From the NCBI GenBank assembly GCA_016931255.1, contig JAFGFG010000009.1, positions 164,661-228,660 of the forward strand: a DNA stretch of 64,000 nucleotides, given 5' to 3'. The stretch comes from Candidatus Aenigmatarchaeota archaeon (GTDB lineage Archaea; Aenigmatarchaeota; Aenigmatarchaeia; QMZP01; JAFGSV01). The position numbers were made by a program, and so were the translations under genes. Under the pieces are notes generated by a model. The model saw only the letters and a program-made list of their open reading frames with translations, did no database searches and was not told the origin of the DNA. Numbering within the stretch: position 1 is the first letter of the stretch; every line of letters starts with the position of its first letter. Positions 1,172 through 22,224 of this stretch are shown piece by piece.

Positions 1172-1204
1172 CGGAAGAAAAAAATACAGATAAATACCAA
1201 TGCT

Positions 1205-1222: not shown

Positions 1223-1238
1223 ATATGGGAGCTACTAT

Positions 1239-4200: not shown

Positions 4201-4286
4201 GCAGTGCGTACAGCAAGCTTCCGATAACTTACAGGCCGCCAGCAAGGACGATGCAGGAACGAATGAAAAAGGCGATGAAGAGGTAG
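1239..4286 (+). CDS. Giant N-glycosylated type-I surface (S-layer-like) membrane protein, 1015 aa
   Basis: An N-terminal hydrophobic signal or anchor is followed by dozens of N-x-S/T sequons and a poly-Thr linker (TTTTTTTTTTPT). After that come a Cys-rich module (CTRDSDCDSDEECKSLKCVELDCDDGY), an IKNTGNKDITVELD beta-domain, a coiled-coil, a C-terminal TM (IFMWIMIVVVVAGAAGLLFYMM) and a basic tail. It is a paralog of 18790..22224. Confidence 0.7.
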   Translation: MALKCIIEKSGLIALLAVFIIAAFIIPSDAAISTDTYSDVEVNLSTAGNDNWTESGSYEYFSFNLTNSNATLEINEINITVPSSGGYSLFTVNMSTKGTDNSSWTCYSQQNDSAGNVSVLTCNTSTDNITNGDTLGIFFFATAAMTSSEDVHYWTVEAFNLTPATVTLNLSSGIDGAGPAVTLSTPGTNTWNAAGDVEFDFSANDSNAMDNCTVWLDNGTAWVSTNGSVDSPVDNTVYNITINGTSDGSYIWNVECSDTFGNSAFSAANRTINVGNRSNIIVSSIIQHGSVAPYDYYNITVNVTLTNNGTANVSKTTTLTVYFDDDNAPLSSPLKVSTYTIYSYQLNYSGSYTVQPQFYMNTTADRYWVMAVADSGLVETEQSEGDNTLTETFDTVFNVSINSVTRGAFLVKPNVNVTQDVVVNVTVLYSNGTPASGLELLNFSIYDTWIAKDMGRTESNAMNSSAVLSDFDDSADASGIYIFNYSVVEMQFYSHDDLIARYAEYGLHRISVKAVGNNTCEYYTGTSTARIAYNITAPFLDGVEGIDGSVRVGDEDEGIFQITNNGNENISVTITISADVASSILDLDDWNGTGGTVNTVGLSIGQMKAVNGTVQAISAGVTNFTLNVTFTHEGEFYFFNFLEEVEVEAASTGGDDDTTTTTTTTTPTIECTRDSDCDSDEECKSLKCVELDCDDGYVASDHECKLKSVYEIAFKNATFGYSLLQDDVLTAKVFIKNTGNKDITVELDTSLEVDGLEINISPSEQTIADGKEGLFVVLFTTAEDAKVGINEGTFKATTDFSTAKAEQAFTVTIEPLPATIAKIKTDYPDYTSRVNSMFAELEAAKAWLTEGNLTLAEAKAVELEALLNSLTDAMDSEDFVHASMYMDDIDALLSDARSILDASAVPGASFDWNTIFMWIMIVVVVAGAAGLLFYMMAPTKGYALGKGYVSQSGTKKLSGIITSIRESFTSKPTSAGQIVQKYRPTAYGSAYSKLPITYRPPARTMQERMKKAMKR

Positions 4287-4287
4287 A

Positions 4288-6375
4288 CTATTCGATAACA
4301 ACCGGGGAATATCCCCTGTGACTTCTGAATCTTTCTTCAAGCTCTTCTATCTTGTCGTGTATTTCCTTAAGGTCGAACTTGTGAACAGTGCTCTCAAGCC
4401 AGTCAGCCTTTGTCTTGAGTATCTCTATGTCCCTCATCACATTCACAACACCGGAATCCTCGACATTCCTGACTGTGGAATCGAATGAGCTAAGCCTTGT
4501 ATTGAGAGCCTTCATGTCAATGCCGAGGGTCTCGTTCTCCTTGTTTACATTGTCTTCAAGTTTCTTTATGCTGTCCTTCAGGGAATTCAGCTGCTTCTGG
4601 AAGCTCTCGAACTGCCTGAGTATCGTTGTCATCTTGGCCTCTGAGGGTTTCATCACGTCCTCCATCTTGGCAACATTCCTGTCAAGAAGGTCTATCTTTC
4701 CTTTTATCTGGTCTCCGAGAAGCTTGCTTATTGTTCCCGGCTGCGCAAGAAGCTGCTCGATTGTGTTCTCCACAATCTCTTCCTTCAGGTCATCAAGCTC
4801 CTTGAGCTTGCCCTTCAGCTGTAGGCTGAAATCATCTAGCCTGTGCTTCGTGTCGTTTCCTACATATTCAGGAAGCCATTCCCTGAGCTCTTCCATCCTC
4901 CTTTCGAGGTCCTTGAACTTATCATAACCGACTCCCTCGCCTATTTCCTTCTCAAGGGATTTTACCCTCTTCTCAAGGGCTTCACTTACACTGCCCTTGC
5001 CGCTGTCAGGGATGTCTATGGGCTTGAGTCCCTCAGCGAGAATGTTGAGCTTTGATGTGCTTTTTTCGAGCTTCTCAATCTTGCTTTTCATTGCATGTAT
5101 CTCTTCAATGGGTATCTCGCCCTTGAACTTCCTGAGTTCCTCAAGCGCATCCGGAGCCATTCCGACGCTTGCCGCCTTCTTCTCGATGCCGGATATCTGC
5201 TCACGGACAGAATTGATGTCCCGGGAAAGTGTGTCTATCTTTTCAAGCAGTCCCGCTCCCCCCTTGTCTGTCTTCAGATCAAGTATATCCTTGCCCTGGT
5301 CGTCTATGGACGTCCTTATGCTTTCAATCATGCTCCTGAGTTCTTCCACATCGCCGTTCTCCTTTTTCTCAGACTTCTTTCCTGACTTCACCTTCACAGC
5401 GCTGAGCTTTTCGACATTGCCTTCAAGCTCTTTGATTTTCCTGATAATGTCTTCAGGAATCGCTTTCTGCGGTTTCTGGGCAGGCTCTCGGAAAGCATCA
5501 ACCCTTTTCTCTATTTTTTCAAACCTTTCAAGAAGTTCATCCGGAGAGTCGTGCGGAAGCCCGTCTATGGAATCATTGAGCTTTTCTATACGGCCTTCCA
5601 TCCGCTCAAGCCTTTTCAGCAGGTCCTTCGATGGTTTTGCATTCACTTCAACGGGCTTTGCGTCTTCCCCGCCGCCGATTGCGGCCTCAAGCAGCTTCAG
5701 CCTGTCAAGAACATCATCATCCATTTCAGTCCCATCCCCCCCTGCTCTGGACTTTATGCCCGAAAGGATACTCTTTTGTTCGCCTATCTCATCCTTCAGC
5801 TTTTCCATCTGAGCTGAGAATCTTTCTATCTTTTCCAGCTTGCTGAGTATGCTTTTAGGGGTGGGTACCGCCTTGCCGGACGGTGCTGATGCCGAAGATG
5901 CATTGACAGGGCCTGCGGTCTCAAGCTTCTCTATCCTTTCCCTGAGTGCCCTGATTTCGCTGCTCCCGGGAGCTGTTACCTTCACTTTCTTCCCCACAGG
6001 AAGTTTTTCGAATTCATCGAGCCTCTCCCTGAGGCTGTCTATTTCACTGTTTATCCCGCTGAGGTCAACATTCGCACCTGGAACTTTCGCAACCTTGGCA
6101 GGCCTTCTGTTAATATCATCCCTGAGTTCCTCAAGTTCTGAAACCAGCTTTTCAGCCTTCTTTATGCTGTCAGCCTTCTCGACCAGCTTCCTTATCTCAG
6201 ACATCTGGTCGGATGTGACAGCTGAATTGCCATCGGAAAGGCTCGCCCTGTCCAGCTCGTTCTTGACATTGATTATGTCCAGCTTGTTCACCAGCTGGAG
6301 ATCCTCGAGCTCAGCCAGCTTATCGTTTATGGATTTCAGAATTTCGCTCTCTGTGTTCTGGTTTTCCTCTTCCAT
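4288..6375 (-). CDS. Large acidic coiled-coil protein (695 aa), possible cytoskeletal or membrane-associated scaffold
   Basis: The protein is nearly all heptad-like E/K/L/D-rich sequence, with no TM segment and no ATPase motifs. It is convergent with, and abuts, the surface protein gene. Confidence 0.55.
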   Translation of the reverse strand: MEEENQNTESEILKSINDKLAELEDLQLVNKLDIINVKNELDRASLSDGNSAVTSDQMSEIRKLVEKADSIKKAEKLVSELEELRDDINRRPAKVAKVPGANVDLSGINSEIDSLRERLDEFEKLPVGKKVKVTAPGSSEIRALRERIEKLETAGPVNASSASAPSGKAVPTPKSILSKLEKIERFSAQMEKLKDEIGEQKSILSGIKSRAGGDGTEMDDDVLDRLKLLEAAIGGGEDAKPVEVNAKPSKDLLKRLERMEGRIEKLNDSIDGLPHDSPDELLERFEKIEKRVDAFREPAQKPQKAIPEDIIRKIKELEGNVEKLSAVKVKSGKKSEKKENGDVEELRSMIESIRTSIDDQGKDILDLKTDKGGAGLLEKIDTLSRDINSVREQISGIEKKAASVGMAPDALEELRKFKGEIPIEEIHAMKSKIEKLEKSTSKLNILAEGLKPIDIPDSGKGSVSEALEKRVKSLEKEIGEGVGYDKFKDLERRMEELREWLPEYVGNDTKHRLDDFSLQLKGKLKELDDLKEEIVENTIEQLLAQPGTISKLLGDQIKGKIDLLDRNVAKMEDVMKPSEAKMTTILRQFESFQKQLNSLKDSIKKLEDNVNKENETLGIDMKALNTRLSSFDSTVRNVEDSGVVNVMRDIEILKTKADWLESTVHKFDLKEIHDKIEELEERFRSHRGYSPVVIE

Positions 6376-6411
6376 TTTATCACTTATATTATTGCTTTTC
6401 TGCTATAAATC

Positions 6412-6921
6412 TTACAATTCAATGCTTGGCGCCACTTCCGGGCAGACCGAACTGATAATCTTCACATCATTAAGGCTGGCTGTTGACGCATTGAAGTCTT
6501 CTGTGACATTGGCCTCTATGAAGGCTGACATCCCCGGTCTCAGGGGGTCTGACGCGCCTATGTCAGTGCTGTCTGTCAGCACGTAATGGTATATGTTTTC
6601 CACTGATGCATTCTCAACTGTCACCTCAAACGTGAAGCTGTAAAGGTCTATGTTTCCGGTGTTCACTATTTTCACCCTTATGAGGTCTGTTTCATTGTTA
6701 GAGACGTTGTAGCTGAAATTGGACATGACGCCGTAATAACCGTAACTGCTGTCGAAATCAAGTCCGGCTGACCGGCATTTCATCTGCTGCTGTGCACTGC
6801 TGCCGGTCTGATTGGACAGCGTGAATGTAAGCTCATACATCCACGGAGCCATCATCGATGCTATTGATATAGATATGACAATCAGGATTACAACTGAAAC
6901 AAGAGGAGAGAGGCCTTTCAT
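6412..6921 (-). CDS. Type IV pilin-like protein (class III signal peptide)
   Basis: The N-terminus MKG|LSPLVSVVILIVISISIA has a short basic leader, then Gly, then a hydrophobic helix, as in archaeal prepilins. The mature part has N-glycosylation sequons. Confidence 0.6.
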   Translation of the reverse strand: MKGLSPLVSVVILIVISISIASMMAPWMYELTFTLSNQTGSSAQQQMKCRSAGLDFDSSYGYYGVMSNFSYNVSNNETDLIRVKIVNTGNIDLYSFTFEVTVENASVENIYHYVLTDSTDIGASDPLRPGMSAFIEANVTEDFNASTASLNDVKIISSVCPEVAPSIEL

Positions 6922-6943
6922 GAATATAATTGCTTTCCTGTCC

Positions 6944-7669
6944 TTAAAATTCTTCAGCCTCTATGGTAATGAAATCAGCACCGGATTCGAGCGTGAATGT
7001 GATGCTGTAGTTGTTGAGGTAGACATATGATGTGTTTATGTAGGCATTGACCATTCCCCTTGGAAGGTTGTAGCCTTCATCAGCAAGCTCTGTGTAACCT
7101 GTGCCGTACATTGAGTCAGGGCTTCCGTCTATTGATATCTCAAGCCTCTCAAGGTCCATCCATGCGTCAAGGTCCTTGTTGTATACCTTCATGAGAAGCT
7201 CGCTTGTGTTATAGGCCTCAGGGGAGGACGAATTTCCTATGTTCTTCAGGTACACTACCAGATGCTGATTCTCGAGTATATGGGCTCCCTGGGTGCTGTT
7301 GGTATACGCGCTTGTGTCAAGGTTGGCGCCTACCATGAGGTTGCCCATCCTCTGATAGCTTCTCGGAGAGACTATCATGCTGCTGGTCTCCATTGTCCAT
7401 TTGATGCTGTCAGTGTCACTATCGAGCAGGAGCTCGCCGCCGCCGAGGTTTATGTAAATCGTCCTCTTGCTGCCCTTGCCTTCTGATGCGACTTCCTGTA
7501 TCTTCTCGTCAAGGTCCAGCATCATGGACTTGGTCTGCTCGAACACCGATGCGTCCTGCATGGACTTTATAACAGGTGTTGCCATGCTGTAGACAAGGAA
7601 TACGAGTGTCACGGTGATTGCGAGGAATATCACTTCTGTGGTGATTGCTAAACCTTTCATAATCATCAT
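6944..7669 (-). CDS. Type IV pilin-like protein (class III signal peptide)
   Basis: The N-terminus MMIMKG|LAITTEVIFLAITVTLVFLVY is followed by a beta-rich extracellular domain. It is co-oriented with, and tightly spaced to, its neighbours. Confidence 0.6.
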   Translation of the reverse strand: MMIMKGLAITTEVIFLAITVTLVFLVYSMATPVIKSMQDASVFEQTKSMMLDLDEKIQEVASEGKGSKRTIYINLGGGELLLDSDTDSIKWTMETSSMIVSPRSYQRMGNLMVGANLDTSAYTNSTQGAHILENQHLVVYLKNIGNSSSPEAYNTSELLMKVYNKDLDAWMDLERLEISIDGSPDSMYGTGYTELADEGYNLPRGMVNAYINTSYVYLNNYSITFTLESGADFITIEAEEF

Positions 7670-7677
7670 TTGTTCTT

Positions 7678-8268
7678 TCAGGCTAATATCTCTTTCCTGA
7701 CTGAATTGTCCCCGCTGCTCACAGATATGAGAGAGTACACGGATGTCTTGTTTGTCAGGACGTCCGCGCTGAATGTTTCCCCGTAAACTTCCATCGCAAG
7801 CAATAATGTATAATCAGGTGTGCTGAAGGTTGTCGAGTTCTGTGTGCCTGCATCCGCATAAAGCGTCTTGTAGGTTCCGGATATGTTTATTCCCAGTGTC
7901 ACCGGGCTGTCCATGAAATTGCCTGCAGTCACATTCATGCTTCCTGCCATGGGCTCGAACAGCACCCACAGGCAATCAAGCTCAGCACCTGAATCCGATG
8001 CTGCGCTGAGTGCATAAACCGTGAAATTTGTAAGCACGCCTGCTGCATTGGAAGCATTGACGCCGACACCTGCTGCATGGGGAATTTCCATCTCAAGGTT
8101 TTTAGCGATATTCTCTATTCCCGCTGATGATGTCGATACGAGCCTTACCGCAGGCGTGAGACCGAAGAACAGCAGCATGCATATGGCCAGTGCGCCGACA
8201 AGGAAGAACTGGCCTTTCTTACCTGAATACATATAGAATAACCTCCATCGGCTGGTAAGTATCGTCAC
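7678..8268 (-). CDS. Type IV pilin-like protein; the likely true start is the internal Met at 8232 (MYSGKKG|QFFLVGALAICMLLF)
   Basis: A class III signal peptide motif (KKGQ followed by a hydrophobic stretch). The start is ambiguous between 8268 and 8232. Confidence 0.55.
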   Translation of the reverse strand: MTILTSRWRLFYMYSGKKGQFFLVGALAICMLLFFGLTPAVRLVSTSSAGIENIAKNLEMEIPHAAGVGVNASNAAGVLTNFTVYALSAASDSGAELDCLWVLFEPMAGSMNVTAGNFMDSPVTLGINISGTYKTLYADAGTQNSTTFSTPDYTLLLAMEVYGETFSADVLTNKTSVYSLISVSSGDNSVRKEILA

Positions 8269-8593
8269 CTGAAAGAATTATCCTTGATGTCCACACATCG
8301 CTGCTTTCAGGCACGCTTCCTGTGCATGAACCCGAATAATCGCATATGGAAACAGCATGGCTTAGTCCTGAGAGATATCCGGTTTCCTCTATGGCATCAT
8401 CTATTGACATGGTGTCACCCTGCGCGGCAAACTCCCTCAGCATTCCTTTCATGTAGATGTCATTGAGCGCTTTTTGTCCATTGTCCGAGAAGTCAGCAGG
8501 TTTTTCCATGTATGTTGCTGATATGACTGCCAGGAAGAGCAGTATAACCACTCCGGCAAGCATTGACTCAACTGTCTTCCATTGTCCTTTCAT
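8219..8593 (-). CDS. Type IV pilin-like protein (124 aa). The start is re-assigned to an internal Met and shares its T with the upstream TAA stop (TAATG)
   Basis: The sequence MKG|QWKTVESMLAGVVILLFLAVISATYM begins at aa 68 of the tracked ORF. The long ORF N-terminus has no features. The ATG at 8593..8591 shares one base with the stop of gene 8593..9282. Confidence 0.6.
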   Translation of the reverse strand: MKGQWKTVESMLAGVVILLFLAVISATYMEKPADFSDNGQKALNDIYMKGMLREFAAQGDTMSIDDAIEETGYLSGLSHAVSICDYSGSCTGSVPESSDVWTSRIILSGDDTYQPMEVILYVFR

Positions 8594-9282
8594 TACCACA
8601 ACCTCACTGTTATGTTTACAGTCCCGTCTTCCCATAGCCTTCCGGACTTCCGGAATGCGAAGACATCCCTGTCTGTTATCGGAACCGGCGGGCCGCATGT
8701 CATTTCCGTGCCGTTGTCTACCAGGACATTGAAGTCCATATTCAGCCCTATGGAATCCTTCACAGACTGGTAGCTGCTGTTGATGACATGACACAAATCA
8801 AGGTTCTTTGAGTCTGAGAAAAATTCAATTATCTCCGTAGGCCATAATTTTGTCTGGTTCTCGTCTGTCTCAGCCAGTGATGCGCCGCACTGCACAGGCA
8901 TGCCGTAGTCCAGTGACTCTATGAAGAAGAAGTTGTCGCCTGTTTTGATGTCTCCGGTCCAGTACAGCCTGTCTCCTGATATCATGCATGGCAAGGATGA
9001 CCCGGAGTATCTTGAGAGGACAATCCTTGTGGAATCCTCAGTGTCTCCGGTCCAGTTCATGTAAGCCCACATCACTGCGTCATCTGCATCAGAAGGCGCG
9101 TCCAGATAGGCTGCATTGGAGATGGAATCAGCTGAAAGATATGACACCACATTCTCCCCTGCCCTGATGGCGTAGTCAGCCTTTTCTGTTACAGCTCCGC
9201 TGTTCATCATGCCGTAATATGCAAAGGCCCATGTCGAGAACATGAGAAACATGAATATGGCGATTATCCAGTCGATGCGCAT
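8593..9282 (-). CDS. Membrane-anchored extracellular protein of unknown function (pilus operon member)
   Basis: An N-terminal TM (IDWIIAIFMFLMFSTWAFAYY) is followed by an extracellular domain with sequons and Cys. It is translationally coupled to the downstream pilin. Confidence 0.5.
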   Translation of the reverse strand: MRIDWIIAIFMFLMFSTWAFAYYGMMNSGAVTEKADYAIRAGENVVSYLSADSISNAAYLDAPSDADDAVMWAYMNWTGDTEDSTRIVLSRYSGSSLPCMISGDRLYWTGDIKTGDNFFFIESLDYGMPVQCGASLAETDENQTKLWPTEIIEFFSDSKNLDLCHVINSSYQSVKDSIGLNMDFNVLVDNGTEMTCGPPVPITDRDVFAFRKSGRLWEDGTVNITVRLW

Positions 9283-9285
9283 ACT

Positions 9286-9840
9286 TTATTTTTCTCTTAG
9301 CGCGATTATATGCTTTCTCAGCTTTGCTGTCAGTCTGTCCCATTTCAGCCAGCACAGCCATATAACCAGCACAACTGCAAGCAAACCCAGTTGCCACAGC
9401 CAGTCGTGGACGAACATTGCCGTGTCGTAGCCATACAATGATTCTGTGAAGACAACCGCAAGAATCCTCAGGAGGTTGGCAGCATATATGAGCGGGATTC
9501 CCACAGCAAGGCCGAGCAGCTTCCTCCTGTAGCCTGCTTCCATGGTCGCGAACATGAGTGCGAACAGCAGCATCATGGATTTCCAGCCTGTGCAGTCCTC
9601 TCCTATATAGAAAGTGAAGGGTTCTCCCGGACCGCATACGAGTACGAGTCCCATGCTGCTGACGTCGAATCCGGAAGCTGATATGAGCCATTCGGAATGG
9701 GCTGCGACTGCCTGCTGGAGAGGAAGCATGCTTATGCCAAGCACAATCACGAGGTAAAGCGGAACTGAAAGCAGGATGAGCCTTACCACGAAGAGCAGCA
9801 GTCTGACTAGTTTTTCATTCTCAGGAACTTTCAGAACCAT
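9286..9840 (-). CDS. Short exosortase/archaeosortase-family-like polytopic membrane protein (putative)
   Basis: It has about five TM helices. The segment EDCTGWKSMMLLF resembles the C-[ST]-G-x-[RK]-S Cys motif of exosortases, and the downstream AANLLRI has the conserved Asn and Arg. It is the first gene of the pilin-like operon. Confidence 0.4.
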   Translation of the reverse strand: MVLKVPENEKLVRLLLFVVRLILLSVPLYLVIVLGISMLPLQQAVAAHSEWLISASGFDVSSMGLVLVCGPGEPFTFYIGEDCTGWKSMMLLFALMFATMEAGYRRKLLGLAVGIPLIYAANLLRILAVVFTESLYGYDTAMFVHDWLWQLGLLAVVLVIWLCWLKWDRLTAKLRKHIIALREK

Positions 9841-9882
9841 ATAAATTATAATGGCGTTATATCTTTATAGAAAGGTGATGTA

Positions 9883-10188
9883 ATGACAAGCAGATGCGAG
9901 AAAGCTGTTCATGACATTTTCCCTGTAGCCAGGGCAATGATAGCCAAGAGGCTTGTTGATGTCTACAAGTTTTCCCAGACCAGGTCAGCGAAATACATGG
10001 GCATATCCCAGCCTGCCATATCGCAGTACAGGAAGAACATGCGCGGCAATAAGAAAACCTCATTCATGGATGACGCAGGATTTCTGGATGTGATAAATGA
10101 AATTGCAAAAGGCATAGCCGAGGGAAGCATAAAGCCCGAGCAGGTAGATGACAGTATGTGCAGGATATGCAGGGAAGTTCAGAAGTAA
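9883..10188 (+). CDS. Small HTH transcriptional regulator
   Basis: The segment YMGISQPAISQY is a helix-turn-helix. It is divergent from the pilin operon, and an SD (aggtga) lies 6 nt upstream. Confidence 0.55.
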   Translation: MTSRCEKAVHDIFPVARAMIAKRLVDVYKFSQTRSAKYMGISQPAISQYRKNMRGNKKTSFMDDAGFLDVINEIAKGIAEGSIKPEQVDDSMCRICREVQK

Positions 10189-10234
10189 ACCCAAACATAT
10201 TTAAGTTATTATTACAATTTATTACAATTCGATT

Positions 10235-11362
10235 GTGATTCTTATGGCAAAAAAATCAAGGGAAAAGAAAAGAAAAGCCGATGCTGCAAAGAAGGCAGAA
10301 CCCGTCAAGGCTGTTGCTCCGAGTTCCCCTAAGAAGACCTGCTGCAGGCATGCGCCAAAGCAGATATTCCTTGCCATTGCTGTTCTTGCTGCCGTCGCAT
10401 TGATCTCATGGTACGCAGGTTCCATGATGTCAGGCAGCGGCCCGGCAGACGCCGGAGATGATGTTGTCGGGGACAAGGTGGTCTCATTCCTCCAGTCAAG
10501 GCTTGCTGTATCATATCCGGGCATTGAGGTCGAGCTCGCGGGAGTTGAGGACTACCCGAACATGACAGACACTTATGAGGTCATGGTCAGCATAACCTAT
10601 CAGGGCCGGACACAGGAACTTCCGTATTATGCTTCAAAGGACGGTAAGCAACTGTTCACCATAATAGGCGACCTTGACGAGGTCATTGAGGCATCTGCAC
10701 CAGCCACACCTTCAGAGAACACAGGTGACTTGTGTTCACAGCTTGGCATAACTAAGAGTGAAAAGCCAAGTGTTGAAGTATTCATAATGTCCTATTGCCC
10801 TTACGGGCTCCAGATGCAGAAGGCGGTGCTTCCTGTCATGACGCTTCTTGGCGGCAAGGCTGACATGGAGATAAAATGGGTATACTACATAATGCACGGA
10901 CAGAAGGAAATAGACGAGAATAATATCCAGGAATGCATAAAAACAGTGTATCCGGACAAGTATATTGATTACGCAACGTGCTTCACAGTCAGCGGAACAA
11001 GTGATGAATGCCTTACACAGGTTGGAATTGACAGCGCGACAATAGACACGTGCATAGCAGCACTTGACACAGAGTTCAGGATAAGCGAGCTTTACGCTGA
11101 CCAGAGCACATGGCTAAGCGGAAACTATCCATTATACAATGTTCATGCCGAAGACAATGCAAAGTACAGCGTTGGAGGCTCGCCGACAACAGTGATAAAC
11201 GGAAAGGTTGTCTCAGTGAGCAGGTCACCCGAGGCAGTCAAGCAGGCAGTCTGCTGTGCATTCACGAACCCCCCTCCTGAGTGCGACACAGTGCTGAGCA
11301 CAGCATCCGCATCAGCAGGAATAGGTGGCGGAGCAGGCGCTGACACAGCCGCAACCTGCTAA
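10235..11362 (+). CDS. Membrane-anchored thioredoxin-fold (DsbA-like) protein with a degenerate CPYG motif
   Basis: A Lys-rich cytoplasmic N-terminus is followed by a TM (IFLAIAVLAAVALISWY), the extracellular segment VFIMSYCPYGLQMQK, and a C-terminal Cys and Gly-rich tail. Confidence 0.4.
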   Translation: MILMAKKSREKKRKADAAKKAEPVKAVAPSSPKKTCCRHAPKQIFLAIAVLAAVALISWYAGSMMSGSGPADAGDDVVGDKVVSFLQSRLAVSYPGIEVELAGVEDYPNMTDTYEVMVSITYQGRTQELPYYASKDGKQLFTIIGDLDEVIEASAPATPSENTGDLCSQLGITKSEKPSVEVFIMSYCPYGLQMQKAVLPVMTLLGGKADMEIKWVYYIMHGQKEIDENNIQECIKTVYPDKYIDYATCFTVSGTSDECLTQVGIDSATIDTCIAALDTEFRISELYADQSTWLSGNYPLYNVHAEDNAKYSVGGSPTTVINGKVVSVSRSPEAVKQAVCCAFTNPPPECDTVLSTASASAGIGGGAGADTAATC

Positions 11363-11368
11363 GAATAA

Positions 11369-12223
11369 TCAGAATTCTATTCCCGATGACTTGAGCACAT
11401 CAGGTATCTTTTCTATGATGTCCGTTGCCAGAAGTCCCGGCCCCATTTCATCCTTGGAGAGGTCGCCCGCGCTTCCGCAGACGTAAGCAGCCGCTCCCGC
11501 AGCTTTCATTGAATCCAAGCCCATTGCAAGGAACGCGCCGCATATGCCCGCGAGCACATCGCCTGTGCCTCCGACTGTCATGAAAGGGTTCCCTGTTGAG
11601 TTCACCATGACCTTCGTGCCTTCTGCTATGACATCCTTGTATCCCTTGAGAAGCACAGTTGACCTGAATTCTTTCGTGAATCGCGTTGCCTCTTTAATCC
11701 TACCCTCGACCTTGCTGTAGAGCCTGTGACCGCTGAGATTGAAGAACTCCTGCGAATGCGGGGTTATCACCCATCCCTTCCTGAGCAGCTTCTTGTCATC
11801 GCTTATCAGATGGAGCGCATCAGCGTCTATGACGCAAGGCTTTTTGAGGTACGTAAGGAATTCATGCACAGCATCCTTCGACATTAACGTCCTTCCGAGC
11901 CCGTTCCCTATCAGGACGGCATCATGCTTCTCTGCGAGGGATTCAAGATGAGAGGTGTTTCCTGTGTTTATGTAATCCCCAAACAGCGGCTCGACAATGA
12001 GATTCGGGGAGAATGATGATATCACATCAGCAGCAGATTCCGGTGCTGCTATTGTGACGATGTCCACGCCTGAACGCAGCGCAGCCATTCCCGCAAGCGC
12101 AGGGGCGCCCTTGTATTTTCTGCTGCCGCCTACTATCAGCAGCCTTCCGTGGTCGCCTTTCCTGTCCCACTGGTGCCTTTTCGGATAGCACTTCAGAAGG
12201 AAGTCGGATGTCACTGTCTCCAT
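11369..12223 (-). CDS. nnrD: ADP-dependent NAD(P)H-hydrate dehydratase (YjeF C-terminal domain)
   Basis: The motifs DHGRLLIVGGSRKYKGAPALAGMAALRSGVD and GTGDVLAG are hallmarks of the carbohydrate-kinase-like YjeF_C domain. Confidence 0.8.
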   Translation of the reverse strand: METVTSDFLLKCYPKRHQWDRKGDHGRLLIVGGSRKYKGAPALAGMAALRSGVDIVTIAAPESAADVISSFSPNLIVEPLFGDYINTGNTSHLESLAEKHDAVLIGNGLGRTLMSKDAVHEFLTYLKKPCVIDADALHLISDDKKLLRKGWVITPHSQEFFNLSGHRLYSKVEGRIKEATRFTKEFRSTVLLKGYKDVIAEGTKVMVNSTGNPFMTVGGTGDVLAGICGAFLAMGLDSMKAAGAAAYVCGSAGDLSKDEMGPGLLATDIIEKIPDVLKSSGIEF

Positions 12224-14897: not shown

Positions 14898-17069
14898 CTA
14901 ACTTTTTCCGAAATTCCTGCCTACCAATGAGAGATCATCTATGCATATAACGCCATCTTTGTTAAGGTCAGCTAATGGATTCCATTTGTCCTGTCTTTGC
15001 GGTAAACAATCGCATGAACCGCCTACAATGTAATCCGATGCACATGATTTCATTGATTTGGCTACTATTACGAGGTCTTTAACATCCACTATATCGTCAC
15101 CGTTGGCATCGCCTTTAGGCTTGCATTCACAACTTCCATAACAGTAATCGTCAATGTTGCAGTCTCCATCACTTTCACACTCAGCACCGCACTGTATGAT
15201 GTCGCATGTGTGTGTCAGCGTAACAGTTCCAGTTGTGCATACATCATTGGCTTCGTCACAGCTTGATGTGAATCCCGGGAACCAGTCCCATGTGAATGCT
15301 ATGCTGTCAGGGTCATTCGTGCATGTGGCTATTGAGAGAATATTATTGGCTGAACAATCAACTGCAATTCCAGCTTGGCAATCCAGAAGTGCGTCACATG
15401 TCTCACTGCCGTCGCACCAAAGTTCATTGTCACAGTTCCCATTATTTGGTGTATTTACTATCACATCATTTATTTCATCACAACTGTCGTCAGTGCATGT
15501 TACACCATCGTCTACAACAGGAGGAGTTCCTGCCTGACAGTCAAGGAGTGCGTCACAGAATTCATTCCCATTACAGAAAAGAGTGTCATCACAGAGAGCG
15601 TTATTTACCGAGTTCTCACATGAGTCTGTTTCCTCGTCGCACGAATCAACAGTGCAGCCTACGCCGTCCGAGCAGTCTCTGGATTCGCAACTGCATTCCC
15701 CAGACTGGCACACATCATTCACTGTGCAGAAGTTCCCGTCGTCGCAGGGCGTCCCATCATCCTTGTTGCTGCTCGTACCGGTGTCGACCCACTGCGTGTC
15801 CGTCACGGAGTACTCGCATCCTGAACCTCCACATATGTAATCCCTGTATTCCTCTTCCTTCTGCTCTTTTTCAGTGCACTCGCCGGTGGATACCCACTGT
15901 ATCTCTCCTGTGTCGTACCAGACGTCTGATGCATTACAATCCTCTGTGAGATAGAAACATGAACAGTCGCTCTCGCACGAGCCGCCGTAATTGTAGACAT
16001 CGCCTACACACTTGTCGCTGCACGGATTCTGGGAGTCGCATTCCGCACCGCACTGGGAAACGTTGCATGTGCTCGTTATGCTTACGGTTCCGGTAGTGCA
16101 CACGTCGTTCTCCTCATCGCATGCCGATACGAATCCAGTGAAAACATCCAGTGTCCAATCGTAGCCGTCAGGTGTGTAACTGCATATTGAAATCGGTTCT
16201 ATGTCATTGTTGGTACAGTCAAACGGCTGGAAGAAGCATCCGTCAGGACCCATGCATTCACCGTCATGTCCTTCGCACCAAAGACCGCTTTCAGGAAGCA
16301 GACACAATGCATCCCCATCGTCATCAATCACTCCATTGCAATCGCTATCATTTCCATCACATACTTCATCCACGCTTTCATCAGCGCTTGCACCAGGGTT
16401 CGTGGAGCAGTCAGCAGTGCTTGTTCCCGAACACTCGACCAGTCCCAGTCCGCACTTTCCAATGCCGTCGCATGTCTGGTTTATGTTCAGGCCCTGATAA
16501 GTGAAATCCTCATCACTCAATCCATCGCAGTCATCATCGAGGGCGTTGCAGGTTTCCGATGCAGAATTGTCACGCGTACCGCCCGGGTTCGACCAGCATG
16601 ATGCTGTATTTACATTAAAACACTCGACTTTACCAAAGCCACATGTACCGATTCCATAGCATCCCTGTCCGACATATCTAGACTCTTCATAAACAGGATC
16701 ATCATAATAAAATTCTTCGTCTGTACTGCCGTCGCAGTCATTGTCAAATGTATCGCATATTTCAACGCTAGAGTTATCATGACTTCCACCAGGATTTGTC
16801 CAACAATCTACCTCATTTGTAAAGTTCTCACACTCGACTTTACCAAAGCCACATGTACCGATTCCATAGCATCCCTGTCCGACATATCTAGACTCTTCAT
16901 AAACAGGATCATTATATTCGTCTATGTATCCATCTCCATCATTGTCGATACCATCGCAAATCTCAGTAGCGGCTTTGACATTAGTTGGAGCAAAAAGAAG
17001 AACTAAAGTTACGACTAAAAGAAGAGCCAGTGGAATTGGGCTAGATTTTGTCATCTTAATCCCATCCAT
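14898..17069 (-). CDS. Secreted Cys/Asp-rich protein with MopE-like C-x-DNDCDG-x-DE repeats, internally duplicated Cys modules and a C-terminal dockerin type-I module
   Basis: It has a Sec signal peptide (cleavage after VKA) and four repeats of the form EICDGIDNDGDGYIDE / EICDTFDNDCDGSTDEE. The segment YNDPVYEESRYVGQGCYGIGTCGFGKVEC is duplicated. The C-terminus reads DANGDDIVDVKDLVIVAKSM...DLNKDGVICIDDLSLVGRNF, a paired Ca-binding dockerin repeat. Confidence 0.7.
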   Translation of the reverse strand: MDGIKMTKSSPIPLALLLVVTLVLLFAPTNVKAATEICDGIDNDGDGYIDEYNDPVYEESRYVGQGCYGIGTCGFGKVECENFTNEVDCWTNPGGSHDNSSVEICDTFDNDCDGSTDEEFYYDDPVYEESRYVGQGCYGIGTCGFGKVECFNVNTASCWSNPGGTRDNSASETCNALDDDCDGLSDEDFTYQGLNINQTCDGIGKCGLGLVECSGTSTADCSTNPGASADESVDEVCDGNDSDCNGVIDDDGDALCLLPESGLWCEGHDGECMGPDGCFFQPFDCTNNDIEPISICSYTPDGYDWTLDVFTGFVSACDEENDVCTTGTVSITSTCNVSQCGAECDSQNPCSDKCVGDVYNYGGSCESDCSCFYLTEDCNASDVWYDTGEIQWVSTGECTEKEQKEEEYRDYICGGSGCEYSVTDTQWVDTGTSSNKDDGTPCDDGNFCTVNDVCQSGECSCESRDCSDGVGCTVDSCDEETDSCENSVNNALCDDTLFCNGNEFCDALLDCQAGTPPVVDDGVTCTDDSCDEINDVIVNTPNNGNCDNELWCDGSETCDALLDCQAGIAVDCSANNILSIATCTNDPDSIAFTWDWFPGFTSSCDEANDVCTTGTVTLTHTCDIIQCGAECESDGDCNIDDYCYGSCECKPKGDANGDDIVDVKDLVIVAKSMKSCASDYIVGGSCDCLPQRQDKWNPLADLNKDGVICIDDLSLVGRNFGKS
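16621..16922. repeat. Intragenic direct repeat. Two identical 82-bp copies (16621-16702 and 16841-16922) lie 220 bp apart
   Basis: The copies begin cactcgactttaccaaagccacatgtaccgattccatagcatccctgtccgacatatctagactcttcataaacaggatc and match exactly. Each encodes one of the duplicated YNDPVYEESRYVGQGCYGIGTCGFGKVEC segments. Confidence 0.85.
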
Positions 17070-17253: not shown

Positions 17254-17676
17254 ATGGATTGGCTTATAATGCCAAAAAGACAGTTCTTATACGATTTCTT
17301 ATACATTTTCATATTGAAATTCAGACAAAAATCACTTTTTACTTTTGTTGGACGGGGGATGCTGCTGATGTCTGACATTCCAATGCGCTACTATAAAATC
17401 ATTGATATTCATGGCAGGCTGAAAACTGTTTACAGGCCGGTTCATATGATGCAGCCCTATGTTGATACGGGATTGGCTATGGAAAGACTTTCTGATTATG
17501 ATGGCTGGAGACGTTGTTACAAAGGTATCAGGAAAGCTGGCGGTGGAAGAATTGAGGTTGAGCCTTTCAAATGGGATCACGAGAAGATGGCAGAGGCTTA
17601 CGCGCCACTCATGGCCGCTTACAGAAAAATACTTTCAGGTCAGATATTACCGCCAGAATATAGGAGTGTAGCGTGA
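17254..17676 (+). CDS. Hypothetical protein. The start probably lies downstream at about 17359 (MLLMSDIPMRYY...), based on the composition shift
   Basis: The first about 35 codons are AT-rich promoter-like DNA. The remainder has coding-like composition and no recognisable domain. Confidence 0.35.
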   Translation: MDWLIMPKRQFLYDFLYIFILKFRQKSLFTFVGRGMLLMSDIPMRYYKIIDIHGRLKTVYRPVHMMQPYVDTGLAMERLSDYDGWRRCYKGIRKAGGGRIEVEPFKWDHEKMAEAYAPLMAAYRKILSGQILPPEYRSVA

Positions 17677-17724
17677 CAAATCCCGCATGTTTCACGATTC
17701 CTAAAAATATAGAGGTGAAATAAA

Positions 17725-17919
17725 ATGGAAATTAAATTAAAACGTGACTGGAGAGGAAATTACAAAGGAATGGAAATAACTGGTCAGGAACATGAAGTCG
17801 AGGACGTTGGCATGTACAAGAACATCATAGAGATGTACATGAAGGAAAACGATATCGAGAAGATTGAAGGCAACTCCGGATTTGACCTCGCAAATAGACT
17901 TCGCAGAGGTGACTATTGA
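17725..17919 (+). CDS. Mini-protein 1 of 5 (64 aa) in a tandem paralogous array
   Basis: Its own SD (agaggtga) lies 8 nt upstream. The stop overlaps the next start (ATGA). Confidence 0.5.
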   Translation: MEIKLKRDWRGNYKGMEITGQEHEVEDVGMYKNIIEMYMKENDIEKIEGNSGFDLANRLRRGDY

Positions 17920-18098
17920 TGGCAGATGGGGAAGTCAAAGTCACCATTACCGAAGATATCAAGTATAAGGGAGTCTTCAGGAAGAGCACAGAGTACATAA
18001 CTGAGGTGAAGATTGAAGGTGAAGGCGACCTTGGGAAATTAGCAAACAACTTCGGAACTTACATTGATAGCAGAAGCATGAATTCATATGAGGAGTGA
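17916..18098 (+). CDS. Mini-protein 2 of 5 (60 aa)
   Basis: An SD (gaggtga) lies upstream. The sequence GEVKVTITEDIKYKG...EGEGDLGKLANNF is paralogous to neighbours 3 and 4. Confidence 0.5.
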   Translation: MMADGEVKVTITEDIKYKGVFRKSTEYITEVKIEGEGDLGKLANNFGTYIDSRSMNSYEE

Positions 18099-18302
18099 TT
18101 GCATATGGGAGAGATAGAAATAAAGGTGAGAGGAAAAGTGGAAGAAAGACTATTCGGAGAAGGAGTGAAAGTCTCCGGCTCTGGAGAATTCTCGACCGAT
18201 GACCACAGTTATAGTGAGACATTAGGCTCATCTGTTCCGCATTATGCAAGCAGGTTGGCTGAAGTTTCATCTTCTCGGCATAACGAGAAGTATGAGAAGT
18301 GA
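18099..18302 (+). CDS. Mini-protein 3 of 5 (67 aa)
   Basis: An SD (aggagtga) lies upstream. The sequence GEIEIKVRGKVEE...GEGVKVSGSGEF...HYASRLAEV is present. Confidence 0.5.
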   Translation: MHMGEIEIKVRGKVEERLFGEGVKVSGSGEFSTDDHSYSETLGSSVPHYASRLAEVSSSRHNEKYEK

Positions 18303-18306
18303 TAAA

Positions 18307-18519
18307 ATGAATTACAGCGGAAGTTTCAATTTTGAAGGAGAAGCATACAGAAGAAGTGATGACCATTCAGGAGTAAGAGGTTCAGGTAATCTCTACAGCA
18401 ACGATAAAGACATCGCAATAAATCTTTCGCACTCAGTACCAGATGCCGCACAGTGGGCGGCAGGACATGCATCGGACATGGTTCGGAGCATAAGATTAAG
18501 TAAGGAAGCACATAGGTGA
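18307..18519 (+). CDS. Mini-protein 4 of 5 (70 aa)
   Basis: The start is re-set to the Met that follows an SD-like gagaagtga. The sequence SGSFNFEGEAYRR...GSGNLYSNDKD...GHASDMVRSIRL is present. Confidence 0.45.
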   Translation: MNYSGSFNFEGEAYRRSDDHSGVRGSGNLYSNDKDIAINLSHSVPDAAQWAAGHASDMVRSIRLSKEAHR

Positions 18520-18525
18520 ATAGAA

Positions 18526-18660
18526 TGTTCGGTGGTAGATTCAGATTCAGCTTTGATGACATAGATGGTCATCGGGATAACTACAGGTACTCTGCATCAG
18601 CTTCTCATGGCTACCTGAACAGAATACTCGACAGGAAGCTAAGAGGTCTTTACATTTAGG
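18526..18660 (+). CDS. Mini-protein 5 of 5 (44 aa, below the ORF-track cutoff)
   Basis: An SD (aggtga) lies 6 nt upstream of the ATG. The sequence MFGGRFRFSFDDIDGHRDNYRYSASASHGYLNRILDRKLRGLYI shares the C-terminal [YL]-[AL]-[SN]-R-[LI] motif with the other four. Confidence 0.4.
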
Positions 18661-18789: not shown

Positions 18790-21700
18790 GTGGCTTTGGA
18801 AGATGGCGCGACCAAAAACAGAGTTGTTGTTATAGCCTTGAGCATAGCGCTCGTATTCGCTGTTTATTTCATTCCGGCTAATTTCACGGGTTTTGTGGCT
18901 TATGCTGTTACTGAGGAAACAGTTGATGGGGAAGGAACGACTCTGGGTGATGGTACTCTTCAAGGAGCTACAGATTACACAGACACTAATTCATTCGACG
19001 GAAACTTTGAGTACATAGAAGAAAATATCAGTAGAAGAGTTAAATGGGACTACGTCTTTAATACAAATTATAATGACACAATACCAGCTAGAATGGAATT
19101 TTTTGCATATTATGTAAATTTTGCAGAATTTGTGATGTTTGGTATTTATAATTATGAATTTTCTCAGTGGGATGTATTGAATCAAACTACACAAAAAAAT
19201 CAAAATTTAAATCTTACATACGTGTTCTCTTGGGATGTAAAGAATCTGACAGATTATATAAATCCAGTAAATGGTGAAATCAAGATATACTTTGAAGACG
19301 TCAACTCCTCGTCCATTCAAAATCTATTTTCAATCGACTACCTCGCCATCAACGTCACTGTGTCGCCGCTGTATGACCTTTCCTATGTGCTGACGAACTC
19401 ATCTGGGGATGCGCAGTCGGACGGCGTCAATGTGACCAGAAGCGGCTACCTCAATGCCTCTGCGCTCTGGAACCTCTCAGGTGTGGAGCAGTCACTTGCA
19501 TGGCTCAATGCAAGCGGCTATGTGAGCACATACAGCTTCCCTCACTACGATTCCAATGACAACTGGACGAATCATACTTTCAACTTCACGAACTATACGC
19601 TGTGCCCGGTTGCCGGGAATGTCAGTGTGAGGCTGAAGGCTTACGATGAGTTCTACCAGCAGAACTTCACGCAGGAGACGCGGTACTTCTACCTGTGGGG
19701 GCAGAGTGCACTTGGAAGCACGATGCTGGTGAATGCCTCGATATACGATGAGAATTATACGATTGCATCCGGCTCTGTTTATCAGGTTTCCTGCATTGTC
19801 ATGGACGCCAACAGCAGTGCTGCTGTTCCCGGCCATAACGTCACTTTCTACGAGGACCATGCTTTCATAGGGTCGGCACTTACGAATTCTACGGGATGGG
19901 CGGGTTTTGTCCATACAGCTTCCAGTGGTGCGGGAAGCCATGACATCATCTGCAACATAACCGATGATGGTTCCGTTTATTATACACTCGGCGGGGCGAA
20001 CACCACCAACACGACAGTCTATTACATCGATGACGTCTACCCGCCTTATTTCACAGAGGACTGGTTCGAGTATGAGGGGCAGAGGCTTGCCAATACATCC
20101 GGCTATTATGAGGCACCTTTCTACAGGAACGTGACACTCGTGGTCAATGCCAGCGACAACACGACGTACGTCACCAGCGTCATAGCGGAGGTAACGCACA
20201 ACGCAGGCACCCATATCAATCATACGCTGGCTGAAGGAGGAGATGGTTTATGGAGGATGGACTTTGACAATTCAGATGCGACAATGTCACTGAACGCCTC
20301 CCTCACATTCCACTTCTATTATCAGGATGCAGGAGGCAACTGGAACAACACGAATGTCGTCGGGCCAGGAGGCAGCCTGAGCCCGAACTGGACCATGCAC
20401 ATAAACCTCACATCCTGGAATTCGTCCGCAGTGTACAACCGCGGCGAGAACCTCACATTCTTCGCTTCGGACATCCACTGGTTTGCCTTTGATGAGGCCA
20501 ACTGGTCGCTGAATGTGAGCAAGTACAACCAAACAGGCAGCAATCTCTTTACTGGCGGCACGCAGGGATACTTCAATTACAGCGTGAATGCTACAGACCC
20601 TCTGGGCAACTGGTCATTACTGGTCAACACTTCATGGATGGACAACAACGGCACTGCGGACTTCACTTTCAATGTAACGGACCAGCTTTCCGTTGCCTTC
20701 ACATCGCCTGCAGGGACAGTCTTCCAGCCGAGTCAGTCCATTAGTCCAATAGTCACTGTGAAGAATGTGAGAGGAGGGATTGTCCCGTGGAACGTCACTG
20801 TCAACGTATCGTGCAATGGCGGGGAATACATGACGCTACTGAGGTCAGGCAACAGCTACATAATGAACGCATCTGACAACTCGCATACATGCACTGCTCC
20901 GGGTTCTTACAGTGCGTCCTTCAGCATCTCGGCGAATGTCACATGCCCGTACAACAACAGCAATGTGCTTGAGACTCTGTCACTCTCGACTGTGTCTGAA
21001 GGCGGCGGGTCGAATCCACCGGGAAGCAGCGGAAGCACTGTCTACATACCGCCTGCCTGCAACTGCACTGAATGGAAGGACGTGGACTGCGGCTCAGGGA
21101 ACTGCACTGAGGACGAGATGTATCAGGAAAGGGTGTGCGTTCCTTCCGGTTGCGAGGCCGAGGCGAGATGCATAGCTGTATCGGAGTGCAGGGACAGGAA
21201 GAACTTCCAGATAACGTCATACACTGAAGTGGTTGAGGTTACGCAGGGAAAGAACGGCACTGCATTGTTCACAGTGGAGAACACAGGCAACAAGGACTTC
21301 AGCCTTGCGATAAAACTTGACCATGACTGCTGCAGCATGTTTCCGAGATTCAATGAGTTCAGTCTTCCACAGAAGACAAGCGTTAGCATTCCGATAGTCA
21401 TTCATGCACCGCTTTCACAGGAGCCGGGTGAATACACGATGGAGGTGAAATTCACGGAACAGGATTTCGAGAAGACGGAGACCGTGAGGATTATTGTCAA
21501 TCCCAATGAGATGATTGATGAGCTCAGCAGTTTCAGGTCTCTTCTCAACAGCCTGCGGGAGCAGATTGATGTACTGGAGAATGCCGGCGTGGATGTCACA
21601 GGCCTCAGGAGGCAGCTGGACGAGCTGGCAGCAGCCATAGATTCCGCCCAGAGAAGCACGATTGAAGACGACCTGAATGCATTTGGCGCAATGCTGGACA

Positions 21701-22224
21701 GCATCCAGTCGGTTTCTGATTCAGTGAATGAGTCGCTTCTTCCTGTGAAACTGCAGGGATTCTTCTACATGTCATGGTACATGTTCGCAGCGATTTTAAT
21801 GGCTGCTCTGGTTGAGGTGTACCTGCTGAGACAATTCATGCTTCCTCCTGTTATCAATGAGGGAAGAATAAGAAGGCTTCGCGGAAAGCTTGATGATATC
21901 ACAAGTGCAAAGAAAGACACCCTGCGCAAGTACAGCAACAGGAAGATAGATGAGAAGAGCTTCGGGACGCTCTCCGAGAAATACTCCAGCGAAACAAGCA
22001 TGGTGAATTCTGAGATCATCAGGCTGGAGGAAGAGAAGAGGAACGCTCTGTCATCAGGGCCCAGTTTCAGCGGCTTCGCACGATGGCTGCTTCACAGGAA
22101 GACAGAAGAGGAAAAGAAGAGGGAGACGTCATCAAAGAGCAAGGCGAAGAACACGAAGATGATGGATTTCCAGAAAAAGTATCTCGACGCCAAGAAGCGG
22201 CAGGAAGAGATGGACAGAAGATAG
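18790..22224 (+). CDS. Giant N-glycosylated type-I surface membrane protein (1144 aa). It starts with GTG and is a paralog of 1239..4286
   Basis: An N-terminal TM (VVVIALSIALVFAVYFIPA) is followed by a very high density of N-x-S/T sequons. The C-terminal part has a Cys-rich module (PACNCTEWKDVDCGSGNCTEDEMYQERVCVPSGCEAEARC), VENTGNKDFSLAIKLD, a coiled-coil, a TM (FFYMSWYMFAAILMAALVEVYLL) and a K/R/E-rich tail. Confidence 0.7.
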   Translation: MALEDGATKNRVVVIALSIALVFAVYFIPANFTGFVAYAVTEETVDGEGTTLGDGTLQGATDYTDTNSFDGNFEYIEENISRRVKWDYVFNTNYNDTIPARMEFFAYYVNFAEFVMFGIYNYEFSQWDVLNQTTQKNQNLNLTYVFSWDVKNLTDYINPVNGEIKIYFEDVNSSSIQNLFSIDYLAINVTVSPLYDLSYVLTNSSGDAQSDGVNVTRSGYLNASALWNLSGVEQSLAWLNASGYVSTYSFPHYDSNDNWTNHTFNFTNYTLCPVAGNVSVRLKAYDEFYQQNFTQETRYFYLWGQSALGSTMLVNASIYDENYTIASGSVYQVSCIVMDANSSAAVPGHNVTFYEDHAFIGSALTNSTGWAGFVHTASSGAGSHDIICNITDDGSVYYTLGGANTTNTTVYYIDDVYPPYFTEDWFEYEGQRLANTSGYYEAPFYRNVTLVVNASDNTTYVTSVIAEVTHNAGTHINHTLAEGGDGLWRMDFDNSDATMSLNASLTFHFYYQDAGGNWNNTNVVGPGGSLSPNWTMHINLTSWNSSAVYNRGENLTFFASDIHWFAFDEANWSLNVSKYNQTGSNLFTGGTQGYFNYSVNATDPLGNWSLLVNTSWMDNNGTADFTFNVTDQLSVAFTSPAGTVFQPSQSISPIVTVKNVRGGIVPWNVTVNVSCNGGEYMTLLRSGNSYIMNASDNSHTCTAPGSYSASFSISANVTCPYNNSNVLETLSLSTVSEGGGSNPPGSSGSTVYIPPACNCTEWKDVDCGSGNCTEDEMYQERVCVPSGCEAEARCIAVSECRDRKNFQITSYTEVVEVTQGKNGTALFTVENTGNKDFSLAIKLDHDCCSMFPRFNEFSLPQKTSVSIPIVIHAPLSQEPGEYTMEVKFTEQDFEKTETVRIIVNPNEMIDELSSFRSLLNSLREQIDVLENAGVDVTGLRRQLDELAAAIDSAQRSTIEDDLNAFGAMLDSIQSVSDSVNESLLPVKLQGFFYMSWYMFAAILMAALVEVYLLRQFMLPPVINEGRIRRLRGKLDDITSAKKDTLRKYSNRKIDEKSFGTLSEKYSSETSMVNSEIIRLEEEKRNALSSGPSFSGFARWLLHRKTEEEKKRETSSKSKAKNTKMMDFQKKYLDAKKRQEEMDRR

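Follow-up and report, generated by a model that had tools for sequence, protein, structure and literature searches.

Dockerins are built from two tandem segments of about 22 residues, each comprising a 12-residue calcium-binding loop (aspartate at positions 1, 5 and 12, asparagine or aspartate at 3, and aspartate or asparagine at 9) followed by a helix. Non-cellulosomal dockerins are established in archaea, in Archaeoglobus and in anaerobic methanotrophic archaea (ANME) (Peer et al. 2009, as cited in PMC9012536), and dockerins have been proposed to act as adhesins in ultra-small Omnitrophota (PMC10066038). Our literature search found no paper linking them to Aenigmarchaeota or to other named DPANN phyla. 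Here we describe a dockerin-bearing gene from Candidatus Aenigmatarchaeota archaeon, at positions 14898–17069 (minus strand) of a 64,000-nucleotide (64-kb) stretch of contig JAFGFG010000009.1, hereafter ‘the window’. The gene encodes a secreted, Cys/Asp-rich repeat protein of 723 amino acids (aa). The gene content of the window, which includes TBP, RNA polymerase subunits, PolB and archaellin/pilin-like genes, is archaeal, and the source is a tiny DPANN archaeon of the Aenigmarchaeota, probably with a symbiotic lifestyle.

The archaeal dockerins, as PMC9012536 and PMC10066038 describe them for Archaeoglobus fulgidus, ANME-1 and ANME-2, are similar in being C-terminal, two-segment modules of the PF00404 family on exported, non-cellulolytic archaeal proteins, in organisms that lack an obvious multi-cohesin scaffoldin. 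The protein described here differs from these in its cargo (a stalk of Cys/Asp-rich repeats, where theirs is an enzyme or substrate-binding protein), in the Cys-containing insertion of about 14 residues in its dockerin linker, and in its DPANN host. With the clostridial cellulosomal dockerins (e.g. 2y3n_B, from Bacteroides cellulosolvens Cel48; 1ohz and 2ccl, from Xyn10B; and 1daq, from CelS) it shares the two-segment F-hand pattern, and these are matched by a profile of its relatives with E-values of 4e-18 to 1e-4. Unlike them, it is accompanied by no glycoside hydrolase, carbohydrate-binding module (CBM) or cohesin in scans of the window, its linker is longer, and its single-sequence score lies under the Pfam threshold.

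The dockerin module

The C-terminus has the two-segment pattern of calcium loop and helix. Segment 1 (aa 654–673; 15051–15110, minus strand, as are all features of this gene) carries the loop D654-N656-D658-D662-D665 and a helix. Segment 2 (aa 696–722; 14904–14984) opens with a W-N-P-x-A-D lead-in and carries the loop D701-N703-D705-(C709)-D712 and a helix. Both segments are supported by PDB, alignment and Pfam comparisons. Alignment places between them a linker (aa 674–695; 14985–15050) that exceeds the usual length by about 14 residues and contains three cysteines.

Compared in isolation with all PDB sequences (phmmer), the C-terminus matches a solved dockerin, 2y3n_B, first, with both segments aligned (E = 2.4e-6). 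Exhaustive HMMER searching of 1.84 billion representative proteins yields 306 relatives at E ≤ 1e-3. When the last 103 aa were used in a word-indexed search for homologues, there were zero matches, there being no shared words. Alignment A1, which sets the C-terminus beside 20 of these relatives (21 sequences), shows an invariant aspartate at positions 1, 5 and 12 of each loop and a near-invariant lead-in to segment 2. PF00404 is matched by 21/21 members (best 2.6e-13). The A1 profile matches 2y3n_B at 4.4e-18 and more than 15 further solved dockerins, among them 2b59_B, 4fl4_A, 1ohz_B, 2ccl_B and 1daq_A, drawn from both type-I and type-II systems. By these sequence comparisons, the C-terminus is a dockerin-family module. 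The first-pass annotation had reported paired calcium-binding repeats here, and they are present as quoted; it had also termed them a type-I dockerin, of which the family assignment stands and the type does not. ‘Type I’ is merely the name of the Pfam family, and the dockerin type (I, II or III) is not assignable from the sequence.

Dockerins occur on other exported proteins of the phylum: Aenigmarchaeota carry them also on S8 peptidase, C45-like, BNR-like, CARDB and fn3 proteins, and at one related locus (L004) a dockerin-bearing S8 peptidase is encoded 1 kb downstream of a homologue of the giant gene discussed below. Aenigmarchaeota thus possess a repertoire of dockerin-tagged exoproteins, and the presence of dockerins on several of them implies a common receptor. 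In another Aenigmatarchaeota metagenome-assembled genome (MAG), five consecutive open reading frames (ORFs), each with a dockerin at its end, form an exoprotein cluster (locus L019, positions 3–12073; JAUWZW010000019.1). Among their cargo domains are CARDB, C45 acyltransferase-like and BNR-like domains; two have no recognised cargo domain, and one of the dockerin genes also carries the Cys-knot of the giant protein.

Architecture of the protein

The product contains 73 cysteines (10%), 148 aspartates and glutamates, and 25 lysines and arginines, and is strongly acidic. An identical, MAG-derived NCBI entry is named ‘dockerin type I repeat-containing protein [Candidatus Aenigmarchaeota archaeon]’. 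Residues 1–33 (16971–17069) form a putative signal peptide: the N-terminus, MDGIKMTKSSPIPLALLLVVTLVLLFAPTNVKA followed by ATE, shows by inspection, without a predictor, the Sec layout of basic n-region, hydrophobic core and V-K-A cleavage-type motif, and it aligns with that of the closest orthologue, P0007, whose architecture is equal to that of the window protein. The true start may be M6 (nucleotide 17054), because P0007 begins MSGISPIP. The 723-aa protein has no transmembrane segment and, in Pfam and NCBIfam scans, no catalytic domain or CBM. NCBIfam gives zero matches to the whole protein, and Pfam reports PF11617 as the sole family, at 24.6 bits; PF00404 is unreported in this whole-protein scan.

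Behind the signal peptide, Pfam and sequence comparison delineate three tandem units of about 63–69 aa, each made of a PF11617 Asp/Cys motif and a Cys-rich hairpin, with a fourth motif as the close (16320–16958). Cys module A follows in a first copy (aa 289–345; 16035–16205), containing ...TPDGYDWTLDVFTGFVSACDEENDVCTTGTV...CGAEC..., and recurs near the dockerin in a second (aa 578–637; 15159–15338) that is identical to the first at 31/55 residues. The first copy is kept in P0007, P0014 and P0093. Module B (aa 346–440; 15750–16034) is modelled by AlphaFold2 as long beta-hairpins with W..W..GECTEKEQKEEEYRDYICGGSGCE, its later part at a predicted local distance difference test score (pLDDT) of about 90. 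Next come Cys-rich repeats of the CDDxLFCNGxExCDALLDCQAG / DDGVxCTxDSCDE type (aa 441–575; 15345–15749), identified from homologues and likewise modelled at pLDDT of about 90. Across the full protein, confidence is this high only at about aa 380–570. Foldseek of the full-protein model gives zero matches at E ≤ 1e-3; the top one, a Cys-rich Entamoeba Gal/GalNAc lectin at E = 0.03, is not relied on.

The repeats at aa 441–575 are the region that pulls hundreds of bacterial ‘cysteine-rich repeat’ proteins into homologue searches. They share the CDDGLFCNGxExCD...CQxG...DDGVxCTxDxCDE pattern of proteins of Myxococcota and Planctomycetota (PF00526 Dicty_CTDC, PF13948 DUF4215), a set that includes proteins with cohesin, repeats and a dockerin-like module together (P0034, P0037, P0043, P0050 and P0062). 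Those proteins are long arrays of a single repeat type, whereas the window protein is a mosaic of five module types. The likeness to PF00526 and PF13948 comes only through annotated homologues, Pfam giving zero matches to aa 254–650 at E ≤ 10. Repeat composition inflates the whole-protein homologue E-values (e.g. 1e-200 at 17–25% coverage), and orthology was not judged by them. The closest full-length relatives are archaeal: P0007, P0014, P0093 and P0094. Much of the first-pass description holds, then: the ORF (14898–17069, minus strand, 723 aa) is exact, the Sec signal has its three-part layout, the internally duplicated Cys modules are borne out by the two copies of module A and by the N-terminal units (about 50% identical), and the picture of a secreted Cys/Asp-repeat protein is upheld.

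Proposed role and the search for a receptor

We consider it somewhat probable that this is an exported, non-catalytic surface or adhesion protein, stabilised by disulfides and calcium, and tethered through its dockerin. The protein would be exported by Sec and its signal peptide cleaved. About 36 disulfides would form, possibly with help from a nearby membrane thioredoxin-fold protein, and the Asp-rich C-D-x-x-D-N-D-C-D-G-x-x-D-E loops and the two dockerin loops would take up Ca2+. The rigid Cys-rich modules would make an extended stalk, and the dockerin-family module at its end would plug, non-covalently, into a receptor module of another surface protein, on the same cell or on a partner cell. 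The stalk would be displayed on the cell, its Cys-rich modules being structural or adhesive. The architecture, the homology to dockerins, the conserved divergent pairing with a giant glycoprotein and the dockerins on several further exported proteins of the phylum are shown by the sequences; we infer that Ca2+ is bound, that the protein is tethered, what its receptor is and that it serves adhesion to a host or matrix. The thioredoxin-fold protein is encoded 3.5 kb from the dockerin gene (10235–11362, plus strand). It is a membrane-anchored, thioredoxin/GILT-like protein, contains Thioredoxin_3 and GILT domains as well as a redox motif of the C-P-Y-G type, and is possibly an extracytoplasmic disulfide oxidoreductase for Cys-rich exported proteins.

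Several observations weigh against this reading. Checked against the profile threshold for dockerins, which the first-pass annotation had named as a possible ground for refutation, the isolated C-terminus scores 19.8–20.1 bits with PF00404 (E = 7.5e-4 to 9e-4), so that even the higher value lies below the gathering threshold of 22.9. The match covers profile positions 1–54 of 57 and its shortfall coincides with the linker insertion; we attribute the low score to the additional length of the linker, about 14 residues, and its three cysteines. Long, Cys-bearing linkers of a similar kind occur in P0007 and in a fragment, P0170. AlphaFold2 models aa 671–723 at a pLDDT of only about 35, because the alignment is shallow there. 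Two orthologues from the same locus, P0014 and P0093, end not in a dockerin but in another, unannotated module of about 170–200 aa, in which Pfam finds zero matches. And no cohesin was detected in the window or at 21 related loci. PF00963 is absent at E ≤ 1 from 10 window proteins predicted to have a signal peptide or to span the membrane, and at E ≤ 0.01 from 7 further window proteins. A cohesin hidden Markov model (HMM) gave zero matches in six-frame translations of the 64-kb window and of 21 related loci, although this model, made from six cohesin-bearing matches, is narrow, and in a control on PDB cohesins reaches only E = 1e-3.

A rival reading is that the dockerin-like module has no canonical cohesin as its counterpart, and either binds another calcium-dependent ligand or is merely a calcium-stabilised terminal cap. 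Possible ligands would be the beta-sandwich or Cys-knot of the giant neighbouring protein, a surface layer (S-layer) or glycan, or a molecule of the host-cell surface. Beyond the lack of a detectable cohesin in the window proteins, the giant neighbour and the 21 related loci, this alternative draws on the unusually long, Cys-bearing linker, on the conserved adjacency to the giant gene, on a weak Cys-knot motif common to module B and the giant protein (pairwise E = 8e-5), and on the observation that dockerin-bearing archaea are generally without scaffoldins, the role of their dockerins being unclear (PMC9012536). Against it, the cohesin search spans just 64 kb of the genome and some 200 kb at related loci, specific binding has been demonstrated for archaeal cohesin–dockerin pairs (Bayer 1999; Haimovitz 2008; both as cited in PMC9012536), and the module retains all the hallmarks of a dockerin. 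On balance, we think this alternative unlikely, while giving it some weight, and prefer that of a dockerin-tethered surface protein.

The giant glycoprotein neighbour

Upstream of the dockerin gene, and divergent from it, lies a gene for a 1144-aa membrane glycoprotein (18790–22224, plus strand), a conserved gene partner and candidate receptor. The protein has 56 N-x-S/T sequons. Its AlphaFold2 model (pLDDT 63) comprises about six beta-sandwich domains, a conserved Cys-knot, a transmembrane helix and a long cytoplasmic coiled coil. Its family numbers 13 matches, almost exclusively in Aenigmarchaeota. A 1155-aa homologue, 41% identical, is again encoded divergently upstream of a dockerin gene (locus L001). 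The deposited NCBI entry (P0121) gives the gene 1000 aa from a later start, the longer ORF being GTG-initiated. This deposited start is probably too far downstream, because the hydrophobic N-terminal segment of the longer ORF is kept in homologues.

The first-pass annotation had proposed ‘adjacent giant surface proteins’ as cohesin-bearing scaffolds. One such protein does adjoin the dockerin gene, but the other (1239–4286) lies 10 kb off, and no cohesin is found in the adjacent one by any method tried (Pfam, hhalign, PDB profile, Foldseek and HMM): hhalign gives it a probability of 0.07%, the PDB profile search is negative, and its top Foldseek matches are alpha-2-macroglobulin/complement MG-domain (macroglobulin-domain) chains. 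Within the window, the suggested search for a cohesin came back empty, in the scanned proteins and in the six-frame translation alike. The scaffold idea is therefore a conjecture, unsupported by fold or sequence, with some indirect support from conserved gene adjacency.

That adjacency was surveyed by searching GTDB species genomes with the giant-protein alignment and scanning the loci found for motif and HMM matches. At six of the nine informative loci, with giant proteins down to about 30% identity, a Cys-rich gene with the PF11617 motif lies divergently beside the giant gene: the window, L001/L013, L002/L012, L007 (giant protein 31% identical), L014 and L015. It is missing from that position at L003, L004/5/8 and L016; three other loci end at a contig edge and are uninformative. 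The partner protein ends in a dockerin in the window and L001, and since P0014 and P0093 carry their other module instead, the gene pair is conserved also without a dockerin, which is not essential to it. In CP070804.1, a complete Aenigmatarchaeota chromosome, a gap of 100 Ns (positions 8883–8982 of L002) cuts a ‘300-aa’ MopE-motif gene; its 300-aa product and a 785-aa fn3 protein with an internal dockerin are probably one protein.

It is conceivable, though we regard it as rather improbable, that the Aenigmarchaeota-specific giant glycoprotein (about 1150 aa) and its Cys-rich partner form a conserved two-gene surface module, in which the giant protein, alone or with its partner, serves as a cohesin-less receptor platform for the dockerin-tagged exoproteins found across the lineage (those with S8 peptidase, C45-like, BNR-like, CARDB or fn3 cargo).

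Module B (15750–16034, minus strand; W..W..GECTEKEQKEEEYRDYICGGSGCE) and the Cys-knot of the giant protein (21058–21190, plus strand; CNCTEWKDVDCGSGNCTEDEMYQERVCVPSGCE) have a motif in common (33% over 48 aa; BLASTP pairwise E = 8e-5). The CNCTEWKDVDCGSGNCTEDEMYQERVCVPSGCE Cys-knot is the most conserved one of the giant protein, and alone it also matches loci of Nanoarchaeia, Saccharibacteria and Christensenella. The shared motif recalls thrombospondin type-1 repeats, without Pfam support. Between the dockerin and giant genes (17254–18659, plus strand) are six small, packed or overlapping ORFs (140, 64, 60, 67, about 71 and 47 aa), with zero matches in Pfam and PHROG scans. The same slot in L001 holds a DDE transposase and small ORFs, and so it looks like a variable insertion slot.

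An identical patch of DNA in the N-terminal units

Units 1 and 2 share an exact direct repeat of 83 nucleotides (nt), at 16830–16912 in unit 1 (aa 53–80, DPVYEESRYVGQGCYGIGTCGFGKVEC) and 16620–16702 in unit 2 (aa 123–150). The copies lie 210 nt apart, start to start, and 86/87 positions agree when the comparison is extended to 87 nt. Two exactly identical segments had been reported before, with a length of 82 nt and a spacing of 220 nt that these values correct. The pair is the only direct repeat of at least 35 nt in the 64-kb window, and is therefore far beyond chance. Within the patch, 28/29 residues are identical, and the same codon is used for 28/28; outside it, across 37 aligned codons of the two units, 21 residues are identical, but only 10/21 are encoded by the same codon, at a nucleotide identity of 58%. 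A homogenised tract with such sharp bounds, inside units that are old duplicates, points to very recent gene conversion, and the patch is best read as a recent conversion tract between units 1 and 2. The codon comparison and the orthologues bear out the first-pass reading in this respect. In the L001 orthologue, units 1 and 2 match over 150 nt at 97% (the third unit, 62%), and in the L007 orthologue over 179 nt at 82%.

The sequence comes from a MAG, and the identity might be blamed on a collapsed or chimeric repeat in short-read assembly. This we hold to be very improbable: the repeat, 83 nt long with its copies 210 nt apart, is smaller than a typical read or insert; the reading frame is intact; the flanks are divergent yet homologous; and orthologues from independent assemblies show the same near-identity of units 1 and 2, which argues for recurrent concerted evolution over artefact. 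The patch, in sum, is an ordinary instance of the concerted evolution of tandem repeats.

The Asp/Cys motifs and the question of MopE

Matches to C[DN]xxD[NDS]D[CG][DN]GxxD[EDN] occur four times (aa 38–51, 105–118, 174–187 and 237–250). The first-pass annotation had listed four E-x-C-D-x-x-D-N-D-[CG]-D-G-x-x-D-E repeats, and all four are located, each with its preceding E-x. The motifs head the three tandem units (about 63–69 aa), whose mutual identity is about 50%. The Asp/Asn-rich loops would seem to resemble Ca2+ sites. LDL-receptor class A, thrombospondin type 3 and TSP1 domains were considered as identities for the motif, and rejected on zero Pfam matches at E ≤ 10.

The same annotation called the protein ‘MopE-like’. 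What remains of this is the short PF11617 motif (C-x-D-x-x-D-N-D-C-D-G-x-x-D), shared with the MopE/CorA proteins of methanotrophs from which the family is named. PF11617 (‘Cu-binding_MopE’) models a motif of about 30 residues; the N-terminal fragment alone matches it in four stretches at 47.7 bits (cut-off 27). Against all PDB sequences, which we take to include the crystallised copper-binding MopE* domain (Helland et al. 2008, as cited in PMC3278476), the whole protein matches only the dockerin 2y3n_B at E ≤ 1, and no MopE structure; it has no detectable sequence similarity to the solved MopE* domain. PF11617 spans a small part of MopE/CorA and ‘lacks specificity’ (PMC6189053), and motifs of this type occur also in teneurins and in the gametolysins of algae (PMC3278476). 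We accordingly reject a place for the protein in the MopE/CorA family, the short motif being generic and the biological context a different one.

That the protein nevertheless acquires copper in the manner of MopE/CorA, its repeated Cys/Asp motif forming the metal site, is scarcely credible: the four PF11617 matches on the N-terminal fragment speak for it, and against it are the whole-protein score of 24.6 bits, under the cut-off of 27, the small reach and low specificity of the model, the lack of a match to any solved MopE chain, ligands that are Asp/Asn-rich like those of Ca2+ loops, and a host that is no methanotroph but an archaeon of the Aenigmarchaeota.

Other features of the window

Elsewhere in the window, positions 9286–9840 (minus strand) encode an exosortase/archaeosortase-like EpsH protein (PF09721, E = 7.8e-16). 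Beside it (6412–9282, minus strand) are genes for four small proteins with pilin/archaellin-like hydrophobic N-termini, one with a weak Arch_flagellin match and one with a weak DUF7289 match. The large surface proteins that were checked have no obvious C-terminal sorting signal. A 5S rRNA gene lies beside a tRNA gene at 53790–54036 (minus strand), and there are two further tRNAs (57543–57713, plus strand). The 5S rRNA and tRNAs at 53790–54036 and 57543–57713 are the only matches in the window at the Rfam gathering level.

Significance

Taken by itself, the protein is an already-annotated case of the well-known, non-cellulosomal dockerins. What is modestly new is its DPANN context, its conserved pairing with a giant glycoprotein, the exchangeability of its C-terminal module and the recurrent conversion between its repeat units.

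DPANN archaea are believed to live in attachment to other cells, yet little is known of the molecules by which they make contact. The evidence from this locus is that Aenigmarchaeota carry dockerin-tagged secreted proteins, and that a Cys-rich family, rich in calcium loops, is repeatedly encoded beside a lineage-specific giant glycoprotein. In this family the dockerin is an exchangeable C-terminal module. The Cys-rich protein and the giant glycoprotein make a concrete, testable candidate pair for interaction at the cell surface. If the giant protein or the pair did serve as a cohesin-less platform, it would be a new kind of dockerin receptor, and a means by which a DPANN symbiont arms its surface for contact with its host.

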